NCBI GenBank assembly: GCA_045597485.1
Contig: JAZLKI010000035.1
Location: forward strand, 5,011 to 69,010
Direction of reading: 5' to 3'
DNA from: Treponema sp.
Lineage (GTDB): Bacteria > Spirochaetota > Spirochaetia > Treponematales > Treponemataceae
Length of the DNA: 64,000 nucleotides
Below the pieces are notes generated by a model that made no database searches, had not been told where the DNA came from, and saw only the letters and a list, made by a program, of their open reading frames with translations. Each line of letters starts with the position of its first letter. Within the stretch, counting starts at the first letter, position 1. The position numbers and the translations under genes were made by a program. Positions 3,044 to 49,847 of the stretch are shown one piece after another.

Positions 3044-4018
3044 TTATTCCACTATAACTTTATCTTTTTCTTCAGCAGAAGTTTTATCAACAATTTCCAA
3101 AGTCACAGTTTCAGAAGATTTTTCTATTATCTCCAAATTGTTTGGAAAATATAATCGTAGAGGAAGTTCATAAGTTCCTTCTTCTAAAATATCTCCGGCA
3201 TATACTTGAATTGATCTTTTTGGAACATGGTAATCTTCAAGATAATTCATAGTACCAGCAAGTTTTATAGTTACAACAGGACTTCCATTTTTTAAATCTA
3301 ATGAAGATTTAAGATTCATAACATCAACAGGAACAATAAATTCCTTTTCTATAATTACGGGAGTTACAAATACTGATGCTATATATTCAGATTCATCTTC
3401 TATTTCTATAAGCTTGCTTACAGTTTGAAGTTCTACATTATTTGAAAAAGAAACTTCAGCATTAGAAACATTTAGACGTGATGTATAAACTGTATCAACA
3501 GCACTCAACATTGTTTCAGGACCAGAAATCTTAACAGTTGATGGTGTAATTGCAATATTTTCTACCTGATACCCTTGTGCTACATCACCTACCACAGAAG
3601 CCTGAATTGGAACATATTTAAAAGATTTTTTATCAACTTCAATAATGACTTTATCATCCTTTAATCGAATTTCAAGCGGATCAAGGACTTTAATATTATC
3701 AGAAATATTAATTCGAATCGGCATATCATAAACACCATTTTCAACAATAGTGTCCAGATTTACAGTAGCATTAATATCACTTACAGAAATAAGCTTCATA
3801 TTATCTGTACTAGTTCTTACAACAACACTAACAGAATTAGGAACAGAACCAACATGCATAACTAATCCATTTTCTTGAATAGTAAGAGGAACAGTAAAGG
3901 TCTTTTTATCTATGAGCGAAACCTGATGAAATACATAAATAAAAATTGCAATAATAAGACAGATAACCTTTGCAGGCCACTGATGAAGAATTTTATCAAT
4001 TGATTGCTTTAGATTCAT
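3044..4018 (-). CDS. cdaR: YbbR-repeat regulator of diadenylate cyclase (CdaR)
   Basis: N-terminal TM helix, repeated P.SVSV/PSTVKISGP YbbR segments, overlaps cdaA. Confidence 0.85.
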   Translation of the reverse strand: MNLKQSIDKILHQWPAKVICLIIAIFIYVFHQVSLIDKKTFTVPLTIQENGLVMHVGSVPNSVSVVVRTSTDNMKLISVSDINATVNLDTIVENGVYDMPIRINISDNIKVLDPLEIRLKDDKVIIEVDKKSFKYVPIQASVVGDVAQGYQVENIAITPSTVKISGPETMLSAVDTVYTSRLNVSNAEVSFSNNVELQTVSKLIEIEDESEYIASVFVTPVIIEKEFIVPVDVMNLKSSLDLKNGSPVVTIKLAGTMNYLEDYHVPKRSIQVYAGDILEEGTYELPLRLYFPNNLEIIEKSSETVTLEIVDKTSAEEKDKVIVE

Positions 4019-42244: not shown

Positions 42245-42302
42245 CATCCACAGGTAGTGTTATATCATATAAATAAATTTACGCGTACACTATGTATGTG
42301 TA
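42245..42302 (+). promoter_or_regulatory. Two degenerate candidate NrdR boxes, 42 bp apart
   Basis: CATCCACAGGTAGTGT (42245) and ACACTATGTATGTGTA (42287) partially match acaCwAtATaTwGtgt upstream of nrdR-nrdD. Confidence 0.35.
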
Positions 42303-42319
42303 ATGGGTATGAGGGGAAA

Positions 42320-42793
42320 ATGCGCTGTCCAAATTGTGGAAATTTAGATGATAAAGTTCTTGAATCCAGAACAATGGTAAATGGTGAAAGTATTCGCCGA
42401 AGACGTGAATGTATTGCCTGCGGCTACAGATTTACCAGTTATGAGCGCATTGATGAAAAACCTTTTATGGTTGTAAAGCGAGATGAACGTCGCCAGCCTT
42501 TTGATAGAGTTAAACTTGAAAAAGGAATTGAACGTGCTCTTGAAAAACGTCCTTTCTCAATCGGAATGGTTGAACAAATTTCCAACGACATTGAAGATGA
42601 AGCAATTAAATTAGGCCGAGAAACAAGAGAAATTTCTACCAGCCAGCTTGGTGAATTAGTTTTGGAAAAGCTTTATTCAATTGATAAAGTTGCTTACATT
42701 CGTTTTGCCTCTGTATATCGCCATTTTGAAAATCTTGATGAATTTATTACTGAAGTTAAAAATATAGAGAAGAGAGGAAAAAAGCATGAGTGA
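42320..42793 (+). CDS. nrdR: Transcriptional repressor NrdR
   Basis: MRCPNC, RRRRECIAC, RFTSYE, ATP cone, VAYIRFASVY; ATG at 42320 after GAGGGG. Confidence 0.97.
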   Translation: MRCPNCGNLDDKVLESRTMVNGESIRRRRECIACGYRFTSYERIDEKPFMVVKRDERRQPFDRVKLEKGIERALEKRPFSIGMVEQISNDIEDEAIKLGRETREISTSQLGELVLEKLYSIDKVAYIRFASVYRHFENLDEFITEVKNIEKRGKKHE

Positions 42794-44897
42794 TCAGTCT
42801 ATCTTCCCTGAATGGAGAAGTTTTTTAGGAACCAGTCAAGACAGCGAAACACAGGGCTTTATAAAATCGGTAGTTAAACGTTCTGGAGAAATAGCTCCTT
42901 ATGACAGAACAAAAATTGAAAATGCCATAGGAAAAGCTATTGAAGCAGTTCAGAATTTTAAAGACCCAGATAAAGCAATTGCATTAACTGACCTTGTAGA
43001 AGAAAAACTTCGTCTCCAGATGGCAGGTAGCCGTGCTCACTCAATTCCCGCAATTGAAGAAATTCAAGATATTGTAGAAACAGTCCTTATTGAAAATAAA
43101 GAAGTTGAAATTGCAAAATCATATATTCTTTACCGTGCTCGCCATGAAGCAACCCGTGATACTAAAAAGCTTATGCTTGATATTAACAGCACAATGGACG
43201 GTTACCTTGCTCAAAGCGACTGGCGTGTAAATGAAAATGCCAACGTAAACTTTTCTCTTGGTGGACTTATTCTCCACAACTCAGGAACAATTACAGCCAA
43301 TTACTGGTTAAATAATATTTACTCAAAAGAAGTTGCAGAGGCTCATAAAACTGCCGCTTTCCACTTGCATGATCTTTCAATGTTTTCTGGTTATTGTGCA
43401 GGCTGGTCTTTACGTCAGCTGATTGCAGAAGGTCTTGGTGGAGTTCCAGATAAAATTACTTCAAAGCCAGCAAGTCATCTTTCTACTTTGGTGAATCAAA
43501 TTGTAAATTTCCTTGGAATTATGCAGAACGAATGGGCTGGTGCTCAAGCTTTTTCTTCCTTCGACACTTACCTTGCTCCATTTGTAAAAGTTGATAACCT
43601 TACAGAAAAACAGGTTTACCAGTGTATTCAAAGCTATGTTTACGGAGTTAATACTCCAAGTCGCTGGGGATCCCAAGCTCCATTTACAAATATTACTATG
43701 GATTTAGTTTGTCCAGAGGACCTTAAAAATAAAAAAGCCATTGTTGGTGGAAAAGAACAGAATTTTACTTACGGCGACTGTCAAAAAGAAATGGATATGA
43801 TTAATAAAATATTCATTGAAATTATGATTGAAGGTGATGCAGAAGGCCGTGGTTTTGCTTACCCTATTCCAACTTACAATATTACAAAAGATTTTGACTG
43901 GAATTCAGAAATCTCAAAACTACTTTTTACAATGACAGCACAATTTGGAACTCCAAATTTCCAGAACTTTGTTAACTCAGATTTAAATCCAAGTGACGTT
44001 CGTTCTATGTGCTGCCGTCTTCAGTTAGACAAACGTGAACTTCGCCGCCGTGGTGGTGGCCTTTTTGGTGCAGATGAATTTACAGGCTCTTTAGGAGTTG
44101 TAACAATTAATCTTCCACAAATCGGTTATCTTGCTAAAAACGAAGAACAATTTTTCAAACGCCTGGATTACCTTATGGATTTGGCAAAAGAAAGTCTTTG
44201 TACAAAACGTAAAGTTATTCAGAAATTATATGATGGTGGACTTTTCCCTTACACAAAACGTTACCTTCATACTCTTGTAAACCATTTTAATACAATTGGT
44301 CTTTGCGGTATGAACGAATGCTGCTTAAACTTCCTTGGTGTTGATATTTCTGACCCTAAAGGAAAAGCTTTTGCAGAAAAAGTTTTAGTTCATATGCGGG
44401 AGAGAATGCAGGATTATCAGGAAGAAACTGGAGATCTTTTCAATCTGGAAGCAACACCTGCAGAATCTACCTCTTATCGTCTTGCACGTCATGATAAGCA
44501 GCAGTTCCCAGATATTATTACCAGTGGTAAAGAGGAACCATTCTACACTAACTCATCTCAGTTACCTGTAGATTATACAGCCGATGTTTTCGAAGCTTTA
44601 GACCATCAGGAATCTTTGCAGACAAAATATACTGGCGGTACAATGTTCCACGTATATATGGGTGAAGCAATTAAGGATTGGAAATCTTGTGCAGAACTTG
44701 TAAAAACAATTTCTAATAAATATAGAATTCCTTTCTTTACAATTTCGCCTACATATTCAATCTGTAAAATTCACGGTTATTTAATTGGCCAGCAGTTTGA
44801 ATGTCCAAAATGTAAAGCAGAAAAAGAAAAAGCATTAAAAGAAAAATTAAAAGAGCTACAGGCAGAAAAAGAAGCTATATTAAAATCAGTTAAGTAA
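42786..44897 (+). CDS. nrdD: Class III (anaerobic) ribonucleotide reductase catalytic subunit lacking the glycyl-radical loop
   Basis: ATP cone, HLHDL, YCAGW, SMCCRL finger loop, EATPAES, CKIH...CPKC Zn site; no RxxGY before the stop. Confidence 0.93.
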   Translation: MSDQSIFPEWRSFLGTSQDSETQGFIKSVVKRSGEIAPYDRTKIENAIGKAIEAVQNFKDPDKAIALTDLVEEKLRLQMAGSRAHSIPAIEEIQDIVETVLIENKEVEIAKSYILYRARHEATRDTKKLMLDINSTMDGYLAQSDWRVNENANVNFSLGGLILHNSGTITANYWLNNIYSKEVAEAHKTAAFHLHDLSMFSGYCAGWSLRQLIAEGLGGVPDKITSKPASHLSTLVNQIVNFLGIMQNEWAGAQAFSSFDTYLAPFVKVDNLTEKQVYQCIQSYVYGVNTPSRWGSQAPFTNITMDLVCPEDLKNKKAIVGGKEQNFTYGDCQKEMDMINKIFIEIMIEGDAEGRGFAYPIPTYNITKDFDWNSEISKLLFTMTAQFGTPNFQNFVNSDLNPSDVRSMCCRLQLDKRELRRRGGGLFGADEFTGSLGVVTINLPQIGYLAKNEEQFFKRLDYLMDLAKESLCTKRKVIQKLYDGGLFPYTKRYLHTLVNHFNTIGLCGMNECCLNFLGVDISDPKGKAFAEKVLVHMRERMQDYQEETGDLFNLEATPAESTSYRLARHDKQQFPDIITSGKEEPFYTNSSQLPVDYTADVFEALDHQESLQTKYTGGTMFHVYMGEAIKDWKSCAELVKTISNKYRIPFFTISPTYSICKIHGYLIGQQFECPKCKAEKEKALKEKLKELQAEKEAILKSVK

Positions 44898-44920
44898 AAA
44901 AACGGGAGGAGATATAAAAA

Positions 44921-45433
44921 ATGAGAACATTAGAAGAAGTTGAAAAAGAGATTGCAGAAACACAGGCTGCATTAAAAGATGTACACGGAACTGAAACAGA
45001 AGTTTATGCTCGTATTGTAGGCTACTATCGTGCTGTAAACCACTGGAATAAAGGCAAACGTGACGAATATGATTTGCGTAAAATGTTTGTGTGGGATTCT
45101 ACTTCTGTAGAAGATATAAAAACATCACAGCCTGTTTTATTCGAAGAAGAAAATGTGCAGCCTGTAATGAATAGCGAAACTGTAACTTACGAAATGTATA
45201 CTCGTAAAACTTGTCCTAACTGCCCTCCTGTAAAAGATTTTATGTCTAAATTAGATATGCCAGGACGTTCTATTGACGTTGATACAGAAGAAGGTCTTGC
45301 TGAAGCAGCTAAAAAAGGAATCTTTGCTTCTCCAACAGTAATTTTCTACAACAATGCAGGAATTGAAACTGCCCGCTGCCACAACGTAGAAGAACTTGAA
45401 GCTGTATTCAATAAGGTTTCGGTAATTGCATAA
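44921..45433 (+). CDS. Stand-alone NrdD glycyl-radical domain fused to a glutaredoxin-like CxxC domain
   Basis: EVYARIVGYYRAVNHWNKGKRDEY followed by YTRKTCPNCPPVK...SPTV; own GGGAGG RBS. Confidence 0.9.
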   Translation: MRTLEEVEKEIAETQAALKDVHGTETEVYARIVGYYRAVNHWNKGKRDEYDLRKMFVWDSTSVEDIKTSQPVLFEEENVQPVMNSETVTYEMYTRKTCPNCPPVKDFMSKLDMPGRSIDVDTEEGLAEAAKKGIFASPTVIFYNNAGIETARCHNVEELEAVFNKVSVIA

Positions 45434-45434
45434 T

Positions 45435-46181
45435 ATGGCTGCATTAGCCTTAAACGAACCTGCTGGTGTCCTTGTAAAAACTACTTGCGTAGATTATCCG
45501 GGCCATGTTGCAGGTTCTTTTTTTCTAAAAGGATGTAATCTACGCTGTCCTTATTGTTATAACGCTGGTCTTATTCATAAAGATTCAAATATCCAACTTT
45601 CCACTATGGAAGAGCTTTTTTCCCATCTGGAAAAACGTCAGGGCATTCTTACAGGACTTACAATCAGCGGTGGGGAACCTTTACTTAATCCTTATACTCC
45701 AGTAATCATTAAAAAAGCAAAGGCTTTAGGCTACAAAGTAAAACTTGATACAAATGGAACTTTACCTGCCGAACTGGAGTATTTTCTTACATCGACTGAA
45801 TTAAAACCTGACTTTATAGCCATGGATATTAAAACCAGCCCTGCCCGTTACGGAACAGAAATCTCAAATCCCCAATCTAAGTTTTTTGGAAATTTCCTTT
45901 ATTTTGAAAAACTTATTAAAAAATCTGCTGATTTAATTGCAGCCCTACCAACCGCCGCAAGAGAATACCGAACAGTTTTAGTACCAGGCCTAATAACAAA
46001 AGAAGACATTAAAAATATTGCAGAAATACTTCCAAAAGATGCCAGCTGGCAATTTGCACAATTCCAGAATAAAAACTGCCTTAATCCAGCCTACAATGAT
46101 TTAACACCCTACACAGATGCAGAAATTAATGAATTAATTGATTATGCAAAAACCCTTATTCCAAACAGTGCCTTACGATAA
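45435..46181 (+). CDS. nrdG: Anaerobic RNR activating enzyme (radical SAM)
   Basis: GCNLRCPYCYN, SGGEP, KLDTNG, AMDIK, EYRTV. Confidence 0.93.
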   Translation: MAALALNEPAGVLVKTTCVDYPGHVAGSFFLKGCNLRCPYCYNAGLIHKDSNIQLSTMEELFSHLEKRQGILTGLTISGGEPLLNPYTPVIIKKAKALGYKVKLDTNGTLPAELEYFLTSTELKPDFIAMDIKTSPARYGTEISNPQSKFFGNFLYFEKLIKKSADLIAALPTAAREYRTVLVPGLITKEDIKNIAEILPKDASWQFAQFQNKNCLNPAYNDLTPYTDAEINELIDYAKTLIPNSALR

Positions 46182-48150: not shown

Positions 48151-48166
48151 TGGCACAGAAATTGCA
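48151..48166 (+). promoter_or_regulatory. sigma54 (RpoN) -24/-12 promoter
   Basis: TGGCAC-AGAAA-TTGCA, exact consensus, 56 bp upstream of the ATG at 48223. Confidence 0.8.
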
Positions 48167-48222
48167 CTATATATAGTAGGAGGCAGTTTTCTAACATTTA
48201 TGATAAAAGGAGAAATTAAAAA

Positions 48223-49158
48223 ATGGAACAGCATGACATAAACAACATGCCTGAAAAAATGATTAACGGAGAACTATCTTGCGATGATACTGTCAAGATG
48301 ATTGGAAGCTTTATTGCAAAAAACTACAGGATCTTTAATCTTCAAAAATATGATGAAGATTTTAGAAGTGAAATTATTATTACATTTCTGGAAAATGGAA
48401 ATAAATTCCTGACAACCTATAATCCAGATCTTGGAGATTTCTTTTCATTTCTCTACTGCTTTGTGAATAGTATTGCAAATACAAAAATGCGTTCACTAAT
48501 CCAAAAGAAGATGAAAGATTCACTAACAATTGCAGAAGGCATAAACACAATTGAAGAAATAGAATATAACTATTCTAAAATAAATCATCATATTCAGGAA
48601 ATTCCCAAAGTTCCTTATTCCTATAAAACACCAAATATTGAAGAATTAAAAAAGATATTTGAAAAGTTACGTGACGACAATACAGACAAAAGAATTCTGG
48701 TACTTGCTATAAAATCATCTTTCTATCTTTCTGACTCTCAAATAAAAAAAATATGCAAACTTTATAATCTTAAAGAAGAAGATTTATATACCGTTATTCA
48801 GTACTTCAAAAATTCTCTTCTTTATAAAAATGAAAAAAGAATTAAGGCAGAAGAACGAAGAAATTTTGCTTACTATCATCACAAAAGATATAAATTCCAG
48901 CTTGAAAAAATGAATGAAAATGGTGAAACAAATGTGTGCAATTACACAACCAGTAAAATTATAACTAAAGAAAAAAAACATAAGAATAACTGGAACAAAA
49001 TGAATAAAAAACTGGAAGACGGTTTTCTATATCTACGACCTACTTCAAAATCGGTAGCAGAGGTTTTAGGCATTTGTGAAAGACAGGTAACCTACTATAT
49101 AAATTGTGCAAAAAAGGAAGTATTAGAAAAAGAAAGTAAAAAAGATAAAGTAAATTAA
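48223..49158 (+). CDS. Divergent sigma70-like protein (region 2-like segment and C-terminal HTH)
   Basis: KFLTTYNPDLGDFFSFLYCFV resembles sigma region 2.2-2.3; PTSKSVAEVLGICERQVTYYINCAKK resembles the region 4.2 HTH; AAGGAG RBS. Confidence 0.6.
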   Translation: MEQHDINNMPEKMINGELSCDDTVKMIGSFIAKNYRIFNLQKYDEDFRSEIIITFLENGNKFLTTYNPDLGDFFSFLYCFVNSIANTKMRSLIQKKMKDSLTIAEGINTIEEIEYNYSKINHHIQEIPKVPYSYKTPNIEELKKIFEKLRDDNTDKRILVLAIKSSFYLSDSQIKKICKLYNLKEEDLYTVIQYFKNSLLYKNEKRIKAEERRNFAYYHHKRYKFQLEKMNENGETNVCNYTTSKIITKEKKHKNNWNKMNKKLEDGFLYLRPTSKSVAEVLGICERQVTYYINCAKKEVLEKESKKDKVN

Positions 49159-49193: not shown

Positions 49194-49847
49194 ATGAAGA
49201 TTTATTTAGCAACCGGAAACAAAAATAAGAAAAGAGAGATGTGTGAACTTTTACCAGAACACACAATTTTAATTCCTTCAGATGAAGGTATAGATTTTGA
49301 CCCTGATGAAACAGGTACTACATTCTACGAAAACAGTCTCATTAAAGCCCGTACTCTTTATGAATTAGTACACTGCCCTGTTATTGCAGATGATTCAGGT
49401 ATTTGTGTCGATGCTTTGGGTGGAGCACCTGGCATTTTTTCTTCACGATACGCAGGCCCTTCTTTTATGCAGGGTAAACCAGACGGTACAAAAATTTCAC
49501 AGGAAGAACAGAATATATTCCTTATTCAGCAGCTCAACGATGCAATTGCAAAAGGAATTCTTCCAAAAGGTGAATATCTCCACGGAGAACGTTCCTGCCA
49601 TTACACTTGTGCAATGGTAATGTACTGTGGTACAGACAGACTTTATGTAGCACAGGAAACTTTCGAAGGAACCCTTATTAATGATATTAAAGACCAGGCT
49701 GGCGAAGGCGGATTTGGATACGACCCTATAGTCTTTTTACCAGAATACGGAAAAACTGTTGCACAAATTACAGCAGATGAAAAGAATGCCATATCCCATA
49801 GAGGCAAGGCTGTACGTGCATTACAAAAAATAATTAATAATTTTTAA
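49194..49847 (+). CDS. rdgB: Non-canonical purine NTP pyrophosphatase
   Basis: ATGNKNK, ENSLIKA, ADDSG, GFGYDP, KNAISHRGKA. Confidence 0.95.
   Translation: MKIYLATGNKNKKREMCELLPEHTILIPSDEGIDFDPDETGTTFYENSLIKARTLYELVHCPVIADDSGICVDALGGAPGIFSSRYAGPSFMQGKPDGTKISQEEQNIFLIQQLNDAIAKGILPKGEYLHGERSCHYTCAMVMYCGTDRLYVAQETFEGTLINDIKDQAGEGGFGYDPIVFLPEYGKTVAQITADEKNAISHRGKAVRALQKIINNF

Follow-up and report, generated by a model that had tools for sequence, protein, structure and literature searches.

The window, a 64,000-nucleotide stretch of a Treponema sp. contig, contains a ribonucleotide reductase (RNR) operon. A gene for the repressor NrdR (TIGR00244, 171 bits against a cut-off of 124.65; Pfam Zn_ribbon_NrdR and ATP-cone) lies upstream of nrdD, and nrdD is followed by a small open reading frame (ORF), which adjoins the gene of a cognate NrdG activase scoring above its TIGR02495 cut-off. 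The initial annotation had described the small ORF as a separate gene with its own GGGAGG ribosome-binding site, in a different frame from nrdD and followed by nrdG; coordinates and frame are as it claimed. The features are:

42257..42793, + strand: nrdR, repressor of RNR genes; likely start ATG at 42320
42786..44897, + strand: nrdD large chain, 703 aa, with ATP cone, catalytic barrel and Zn site, without Gly loop
44814..44894, + strand: predicted NrdD C-terminal docking helix, residues 677-703 (63 pairs, model helix, interface residues)
44898..44920, + strand: 23-nt spacer between nrdD and the small ORF; ribosome-binding site GGGAGG at 44904-44909
44921..45433, + strand: small chain, 170 aa, with docking helix, Gly-radical loop and helix, variable linker and thioredoxin-fold domain
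44921..44986, + strand: predicted small-chain N-terminal docking helix, residues 1-22 (structure model, 63 pairs, interface residues)
45020..45022, + strand: Gly34 codon, predicted glycyl-radical site in RIVGY (invariant column; NRDD 532-562)
45182..45427, + strand: glutaredoxin/thioredoxin-like domain, C98-P-N-C101 and P138 (PF00462; thioredoxin fold matches)
45426..46181, + strand: nrdG activase (radical SAM); TIGR02495 NrdG2, 134.5 bits, cut-off 131.15

The spacer between nrdD and the small ORF contains no NrdR-like box. Scanning the whole window with 3 mismatches for what we take to be the NrdR box consensus gave 38 matches, against 38.4 expected, and none at the operon.

The large chain is a class III RNR (NF006126, 1071.6 bits, cut-off 548). 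Its model matches class III RNR structures with Z scores of 27.5-32.8, and its 10-stranded barrel superimposes best on 8p2s (Z 32.8, rmsd 2.3, 454 aligned residues). The chain contains Y203-C204-A-G, the finger loop S407-M-C409-C410-R-L and a Zn site formed by C660-K-I-H663 and C673-P-K-C676. C409, C410, the four Zn ligands and M408, which precedes the Cys pair, are invariant in alignment A3. E555 aligns with T. maritima E495, which we take to be the proposed active-site acid.

NrdD normally carries its Gly radical in cis. Here, no R..GY motif was found in the 703-aa chain; it is located on the next ORF, as R31-I-V-G34-Y35. This is reflected by the Pfam NRDD model, of which positions 1-531 of 562 match the large ORF and positions 532-562 match residues 25-56 of the small ORF. 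Gly loop and barrel do not share one polypeptide, which makes the enzyme a two-chain variant, and both the motif search and the divided model bear out the initial claim of an NrdD whose loop is encoded by the following gene. Gly34 is invariant in 43 of 43 aligned small chains and is the predicted glycyl-radical site. The Gly_radical family PF01228 does not match the small chain at E<=0.1 and is also absent among the matches from its own genome.

The C-terminal part of the small chain adopts a predicted thioredoxin fold, with a model pLDDT of 95-98 over residues 91-160. PF00462 (glutaredoxin) matches residues 91-133, thioredoxins are matched at E ~1e-4, and the CPNC motif at 98 is followed by P138 within SPTV at 137. 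C98 and C101 are invariant in the aligned small chains. The redoxin had been presented as a feature of the split subunit. This does not hold, as the same CxxC domain occurs in 68 of 77 unsplit relatives, ruling out that it came with the split, and is absent from some split lineages. On this sequence comparison, the redoxin fusion predates the split.

Some split lineages lack the fold, as seen in the small chains that are unlinked to nrdD in genus g21, and this weakens the case for a redoxin role. We nevertheless lean towards a tethered CPNC domain that re-reduces the C204-finger-loop disulfide and is itself fed by thioredoxin reductase (TrxR), for which the genome has a gene. In the complex model described below, neither the redoxin domain nor the finger-loop cysteines are placed in confident contact; this part is uncertain and does not count as evidence. 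The SMCCRL/MCCR loop had also been read as a mark of redoxin use. Section 2.5 of PMC9669993, in the text available, describes Met-containing double-Cys NrdDs as having parts for either formate or thioredoxin, so that the loop by itself does not point to redoxin use and formate may be the reductant.

Across the genus, the head of the small chain was detected in 77 of 121 genomes, with all 79 matches lying within frames of 79-261 aa, and no match was obtained in the other 44. A second match was present in only 2 of the 77, so that extra chromosomal 'spare' copies are not a general feature. In four closed single-contig genomes (G075, G102, G125, G145), nrdD and the small gene are ~95-600 kb apart, which supports action in trans; in G075 the small gene adjoins an NrdG-like gene. 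In three further genomes (G190, G390 and G404; 97-99% complete, in 40, 1 and 2 contigs), searches with NRDD, PF02867 and TIGR02505 found the split pair as the only RNR, and the split enzyme is apparently the sole RNR in some genomes of the genus. The present genome has a second, intact NrdD with its own nrdG, so the split copy is dispensable here.

How the two chains could meet is suggested by a pair of helices inserted exactly between Zn ligand Cys676 and the conserved G-x-E-T-EVY of the single-chain enzyme. Heptad cores can be assigned to the NrdD tail (T+8, 12, 15, 19, 22) and to the small-chain head (L4, V7, I11, T14, L18, V21), and in 63 related pairs, from which 9 duplicates or loci without NrdD had been dropped beforehand, the hydrophobic core columns are 84-100% conserved at most heptad positions. 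The initial annotation had contrasted a Lys-rich tail with an acidic head; the signs are right (net charge +2 and -3), but the contrast is only modest.

Charges covary across the two genes. Among the 63 pairs, T+16/H-12 is -/+ in 39, +/- in 13 and like-charged in none; T+11/H-17 is -/+ in 40, +/- in 11 and like-charged in 3; T+4/H-10 is -/+ in 25, +/- in 11 and like-charged in 1. Comparison pairs are often like-charged (T+18/H-10 20/63, T+9/H-12 24/63, T+16/H-19 34/63). The covarying pairs sit at e-e' and g-g' positions, and charge pairing at these positions is the pattern of an antiparallel coiled coil. After correction for the tree, net tail and head charge correlate with r = -0.42 (permutation p 0.0004), while 59 core windows in the same test gave a mean r of -0.005 and a minimum of -0.26; tail and redoxin charge do not covary.

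Structure prediction of both chains together gave a complex score of 0.86 (best control 0.00), in a test where likeness to solved single-chain NrdD can let the two halves of a split gene through. The mark was reached by 116 of 157 solved pairs and 2 of 215 mismatched pairs; the runs agree in >=70% of contacts, with a partner pLDDT >=69. Solved NrdD structures contain nothing equivalent to the helices, with alignments ending mostly at model residue 552 (NrdD 677) and at most at 555. In the model, the helices pair antiparallel, strand 26-30 of the small chain lines up beside NrdD 656-660 as its paired strand, and the barrel has the Gly loop placed against it. The predicted interface includes both helix faces, all six residues of the three covarying pairs, and C676 beside G23. 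Its lowest-error contacts are strand-strand, not helix-helix.

The helices of the split type seen here (type A) are absent from 77 unsplit loci and from 13 plain unsplit spirochaete loci. One fused, tail-less relative, L034, lacks both helices and nests inside the split radiation; a tree with L034 and L132 outside the radiation is rejected (AU p 0.005), and L035 is a plain unsplit NrdD. This tree set left out 13 too-short loci and 10 duplicates or loci without NrdD, and two of three unsplit redoxin-fused loci were thinned out. A single origin for all split types was rejected with an AU p of 1e-132 on a quick tree of 52 hand-picked rows. On these trees, class III RNR was split repeatedly in independent events, at nearly identical positions. 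In virus records, a short helix-bearing chain was recognised by HMM and heptad test in 23 of 51 virus loci (L267 was unparsed in this count), and the NrdD barrel was absent from all 10 virus records searched whole.

Could the two ORFs encode one chain after all, through assembly error, a recent pseudogenising break or programmed frameshifting or read-through? The spacer is A-rich and differs by single bases in length between strains, and the intact second NrdD would relax selection on the split copy. However, contigs from 3 of 4 sequencing runs, which come from 2 studies and close strains, cross the junction with the stop preserved; the indels listed there are only single-A losses in A-runs that leave the TAA intact. 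The same stop-plus-new-ORF layout recurs in 28 of 29 relatives' loci, the remaining one being too short to show it. Over the 63 pairs, the frame offsets between nrdD and the small gene are distributed 24/15/24 with variable spacer lengths. The unlinked genes of the four closed genomes strongly contradict a single chain, and the pair is the sole RNR found in three genomes. Together, contigs, layout, offsets and unlinked genes rule out assembly error and frameshift, and we regard the one-chain explanation as a whole as extremely improbable. It is a good deal less far-fetched, but still improbable, that there are two chains whose helices are homo-oligomer zippers or spacers, with the conserved strand and loop doing the binding. 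Split types B and C manage without such helices, and the strand-strand contacts noted above would fit. Against this stand the charges swapped between the two genes, never alike in the best pair, the joint loss of both helices in the re-fused relative, and the heptad retained in virus-borne small chains. Heterodimeric coiled-coil docking is thus supported computationally by heptads, covariation and the complex model, as is a Gly loop supplied in trans by gene layout, relatives, unlinked genomes and the same model.

We therefore propose a two-gene class III RNR in which the 170-aa chain, predicted to dock on the 703-aa chain, very probably provides the glycyl radical in trans. The chains would be joined by an antiparallel coiled coil together with a β-strand that they share. 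By analogy with class III chemistry, NrdG and SAM would install the radical on Gly34, which would then generate the finger-loop thiyl radical, and the tethered CPNC domain would re-reduce the resulting disulfide. Historically, a single-chain NrdD-Gly-redoxin ancestor may have split once in this spirochaete radiation, gaining the helices, with at least one lineage re-fusing and losing them.

The purpose of the arrangement is less clear-cut. It is conceivable, though we would not favour it, that the small chain is an exchangeable cartridge: a fresh copy would displace the O2-cut stub via the coiled coil, the barrel would be reused, and phages would carry their own cartridge, a helix-bearing chain, sometimes with redoxin, that reactivates or takes over the host's barrel. 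An even chance goes to a stable, non-exchanging heterodimer, an alternative that concerns purpose only, in which having two genes is near-neutral, or helps with separate regulation or easier NrdG access, rather than with O2 repair. According to the complex model, residues 1-33 of a chain cut at Gly34, comprising the entire docking helix and the paired strand, would stay on NrdD. This retained stub favours a stable heterodimer, as do the scarcity of second copies, the occurrence of re-fusion and the lack of an NrdR-like box for the small gene here. The helix-bearing chains of viruses without a barrel, the NrdR-like spacer box in 10 of 63 relatives and the repeated splitting at almost identical points speak against it.

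The predicted enzyme would be a maker of DNA precursors, common in this spirochaete genus, with the radical glycine placed on a second, 19-kDa chain bearing a docking helix, a detachable radical part of a kind that the source texts available describe for only one other enzyme, pyruvate formate-lyase (PFL). Should the cartridge exist, it would be without precedent, both as an obligate trans glycyl-radical subunit and as a spare-part system for an enzyme other than PFL, and an 80-kDa barrel would be reused after O2 damage, suggesting a natural route to repairable oxygen-sensitive radical enzymes. Radical delivery in trans, subunit exchange after oxygen damage and the electron source are testable with three purified proteins. 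With the split, the many short ORFs annotated as 'nrdD' fragments in bacteria and viruses also find an explanation.

Single-chain NrdD/NrdG systems (T. maritima 4COI/4U3E, P. copri 8P23, phage T4 1H78) have in common with the present one the barrel, ATP cone, Zn site, double-Cys finger loop, RxxGY loop and activase gene. Here, in contrast, the Gly loop is on a separate product, docking helices are inserted behind the final Zn cysteine and the enzyme carries a redoxin domain.

PFL can use a trans-acting Gly-radical protein, GrcA/YfiD. Whereas PFL carries a loop of its own and turns to YfiD only once damaged, the large chain here never has the loop, and the PFL-type domain PF01228 of GrcA/YfiD is not matched by the small chain. 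GrcA/YfiD and phage T4 Y06I are likewise small, free-standing Gly-radical proteins acting in trans, with phage-borne copies, according to the available text of PMC8683613. That 2021 paper leaves open, in the same text, whether other glycyl-radical enzymes have spare parts, and the available part of a 2026 review (PMC13450708) names formate lyases as the only class with identified ones.

The thioredoxin-using Neisseria bacilliformis NrdD2 resembles the present NrdD in its double-Cys finger loop, βA Cys and Glu aligned to T. maritima E495, but its finger loop reads SCCR, lacking Met, and its thioredoxin is free, where we find MCCR (M408) and a tethered domain (PMC9669993, section 2.5, as available). 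In the split class II NrdJa/NrdJb of Pseudomonas aeruginosa, two genes of one operon likewise encode the enzyme, the small chain serving thiol-disulfide exchange; unlike here, it is B12-dependent and keeps the radical machinery on the large chain. In the accessible text of PMC4520616 (2015) it is called the only split RNR found outside viruses. Literature searches turned up no split class III RNR, and none appears in the available portions of PMC9669993, PMC4390871, PMC9176816, bioRxiv 2022.04.23.489257, PMC13450708, PMC8683613, PMC4520616, PMC3267527 and PMC5704485; RNRdb notes or supplements could mention it or the redoxin fusion. The placement of a redoxin on the radical-bearing subunit is shared with the glutaredoxin-fused class I β subunit, as far as the available sources describe it.

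The window encodes nrdR, nrdD, a 170-aa ORF and nrdG, as found by ORF and profile searches. Every motif that the initial annotation had assigned to nrdD and the small ORF was located in the sequence, and NrdD does lack the glycyl-radical loop: R..GY is missing from the large chain, and the Pfam NRDD model is divided: the large ORF matches its positions 1-531, and 532-562 fall on the small ORF, which also has a glutaredoxin match.

42786-44897, + strand: nrdD large chain, 703 aa (ORF reading, family profiles)
44921-45433, + strand: small chain ORF, 170 aa (ORF reading, Pfam)

A TAA and a 23-nt spacer separate the ORFs, and no reading frame bridges them. Small-chain homologues gave 1134 matches, the named ones being Treponema sp. 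and Spirochaetales assemblies.

The split in the window is real and conserved. The initial annotation had allowed for an assembly error and for relatives that are all unsplit. Contigs of close strains from three of four sequencing runs cross the junction, and, in a listing whose substitutions were the best-supported ones, the indels there all preserve the stop. The proposed survey of spirochaete relatives found the same layout in 28 of 29 loci, and 77 of 121 genomes of the genus match the first 60 residues of the small chain, all 79 matches to its head sitting within frames of 79-261 aa. Frame offsets between nrdD and the small gene are distributed 24/15/24 across 63 adjacent pairs. An assembly error or a decaying gene is contradicted by the close-strain contigs, the relatives' layout and genomes with unlinked genes. 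In four single-contig genomes of one genus (g21), nrdD bears the helical tail but no adjacent loop; the small gene lies ~95-600 kb away, and its product, 95-98 aa long, retains the helix and the Gly loop and lacks the redoxin fold. The unlinked small gene of genome G075 adjoins an NrdG-like gene.

Elsewhere, locus L042 (genome G014) holds at 3149-3959, after nrdR, a 269-codon frame with an NrdD-like start and a redoxin-domain end, seemingly what an internal deletion left of the operon. A single protein record, P0125, joins the small-chain head to a 4Fe-4S ferredoxin-like end in place of the redoxin and may be a chimeric assembly. Loci L101, L103 (at a contig end) and L127 hold NrdD without the Gly loop and no adjoining small gene within the stretch examined.

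Single-chain relatives read C-x-x-C-G-x-E/K-T-E-V-Y at the split site. The C-terminal helix of NrdD (the tail, positions T+n) begins directly after C676, and the N-terminal helix of the small chain (the head, positions H-n) stops just short of G23-T-E-T-E-V-Y. Since both border this bond, tail, stop, ribosome-binding site and head form one insertion. Across 63 pairs, the heptad core comprises T+8, 12, 15, 19 and 22 in the tail and H-23, -20, -16, -13, -9 and -6 in the head. Charges at T+16/H-12 (Q692/Q15 in the window protein) are -/+ in 39 of these pairs, +/- in 13 and alike in none, with similar swapping at T+11/H-17 and T+4/H-10. Once the tree is corrected for, T+16/H-12 shows the strongest correlation among ~500 position pairs (r -0.75), and the net charges of tail and head are anticorrelated (r -0.42, p 0.0004), exceeding all 59 control windows. 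Charge pairing at e-e' and g-g' positions signifies an antiparallel coiled coil. The co-varying pairs occupy these positions, so tail and head should pair antiparallel, and the topology demands the same. Both helices are absent from every unsplit NrdD examined (77 loci from a GTDB scan and 13 plain unsplit spirochaete loci). One unsplit, tail-less NrdD-Gly-redoxin fusion, L034, is nested within the split radiation in the tree; a clade excluding L034 and L132 gave an AU p of 0.005. L034 is most simply read as a re-fusion that deleted both helices.

Prediction of the NrdD and small-chain complex scored 0.86 versus 0.00 for the best control, although split-gene halves may pass this test through likeness to solved NrdD. 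The score mark is reached by 116/157 solved and 2/215 mismatched pairs, a calibration only roughly valid here, as own alignments and a zinc ligand were used. At least 70% of contacts agreed between runs, with partner pLDDT of at least 69. The helices are predicted to pair, as anticipated, with the heptad faces of NrdD 676-702 against matching faces of small-chain residues 1-21; C676 is placed next to G23, and strand 26-30 on NrdD 656-660. The Gly loop belongs to the confident interface; the finger-loop cysteines and the redoxin domain are not among its confident contacts. Modelled alone, the small chain forms two helices (4-19 and 39-52), separated by a loop of low confidence, and then a thioredoxin fold; the large-chain model matches class III RNRs with Z up to 32.8 and has the tail as an additional helix. 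A two-chain class III RNR with its Gly loop in trans is very probable.

The initial annotation took the SMCCRL pattern as the sign of a redoxin-dependent subtype; section 2.5 of PMC9669993, however, gives MCCR enzymes parts for formate and thioredoxin alike. M408, C204, C409/C410 and E555 are all present in the window NrdD, and the counterpart of E555 in T. maritima is E495 by alignment. Redoxin use is moderately favoured by the tethered CPNC domain and by a gene for thioredoxin reductase in the source genome. The GTDB scan covered 6 of 64 parts and found 599 loci, of which the best 80 were classified. Among these 80, 77 are unsplit and 68 of the 77 end in the same redoxin domain (64 with CPNC), so the fusion predates the split.

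The source genome (82% complete) gave no class I/II RNR match. It has a second NrdD, intact, single-Cys (MGCR) and 720 aa long, with its own nrdG (L001, G000:C11:35260-40068), and thus a formate-type plus the split enzyme. The perfect palindrome CACTATATATAGTG preceding this nrdD is likely an NrdR box. In G190, G390 and G404, drawn from a hand-picked set, profile searches for class I/II (PF02867) and monomeric class II (TIGR02505) enzymes and for an intact NrdD gave no match, so the split pair is the only RNR found there; in one set of five genomes searched, four had another RNR.

Splitting has other forms, and a tree test rejected a single origin for the window's type A and for types B and C. 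In type B (30 loci among hand-picked weaker spirochaete matches), a 50-65-aa Gly peptide follows NrdD without a helix; in L085-L128, NrdD ends C..HG..CPxxH(T/S)xEELxxYG. Six unsplit relatives, including L094, L097, L105, L109 and L130, bear a long insertion where type B is split. In type C (six loci overall: L096, L099, L111, L144, L158, L170; one Desulfuromonadaceae and one Iainarchaeota (archaeon) genome among the taxa), NrdD retains three Zn ligands and the small chain begins with a Cys, which may be the fourth ligand of a shared Zn site. Among 51 virus loci, 17 are barrel-fused and 23 (20 distinct) code for a short chain that bears the heptad helix of type A, one adjoining a split nrdD. 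The stand-alone, helix-bearing chains are L219-L232, L236, L240, L242, L246, L249 and L251-L253; L231 retains the redoxin and L219 has it as the following ORF. All ten virus records searched whole (seven at least 90% complete) hold the small piece only. W-N-x-G-K has drifted in some virus chains, so these are possible decoys or inhibitors.

If O2 cut the enzyme at Gly34, the 80-kDa chain would on geometric grounds be left intact, and the small chain could be a replaceable radical part. This is favoured by the virus-borne copies and by splits that arose more than once at almost one and the same site, as well as by NrdR-like boxes before the small gene in 10/63 relatives, which have long spacers (L005-L008, L014, L015, L017, L045, L049, L054); the boxes suggest separate regulation there. 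As a perfect palindrome, this box also stands before the other nrdD of the source genome. However, residues 1-33 (helix and strand) would remain docked after cleavage, and repair would therefore require exchange of this stub; second small-chain copies are rare (2/77 genomes), and re-fusion occurs. We regard replacement as a tentative explanation, somewhat less probable than its opposite. In the window, the box scan found no NrdR-like box at the nrdR-nrdD operon. A near-perfect one lies at 48165-48178, upstream of a 311-aa ORF (48223-49158) with no Pfam match; the gene after this ORF encodes a nucleotide pyrophosphatase of the Ham1 family (49194-49847).

In the literature surveyed, we found no split class III RNR; split NrdJa/b is a parallel case. 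Like GrcA/YfiD, the small chain would act in trans, but it does not pass the homology and partner tests for that family. By analogy, the split enzyme would work much as single-chain NrdD does.
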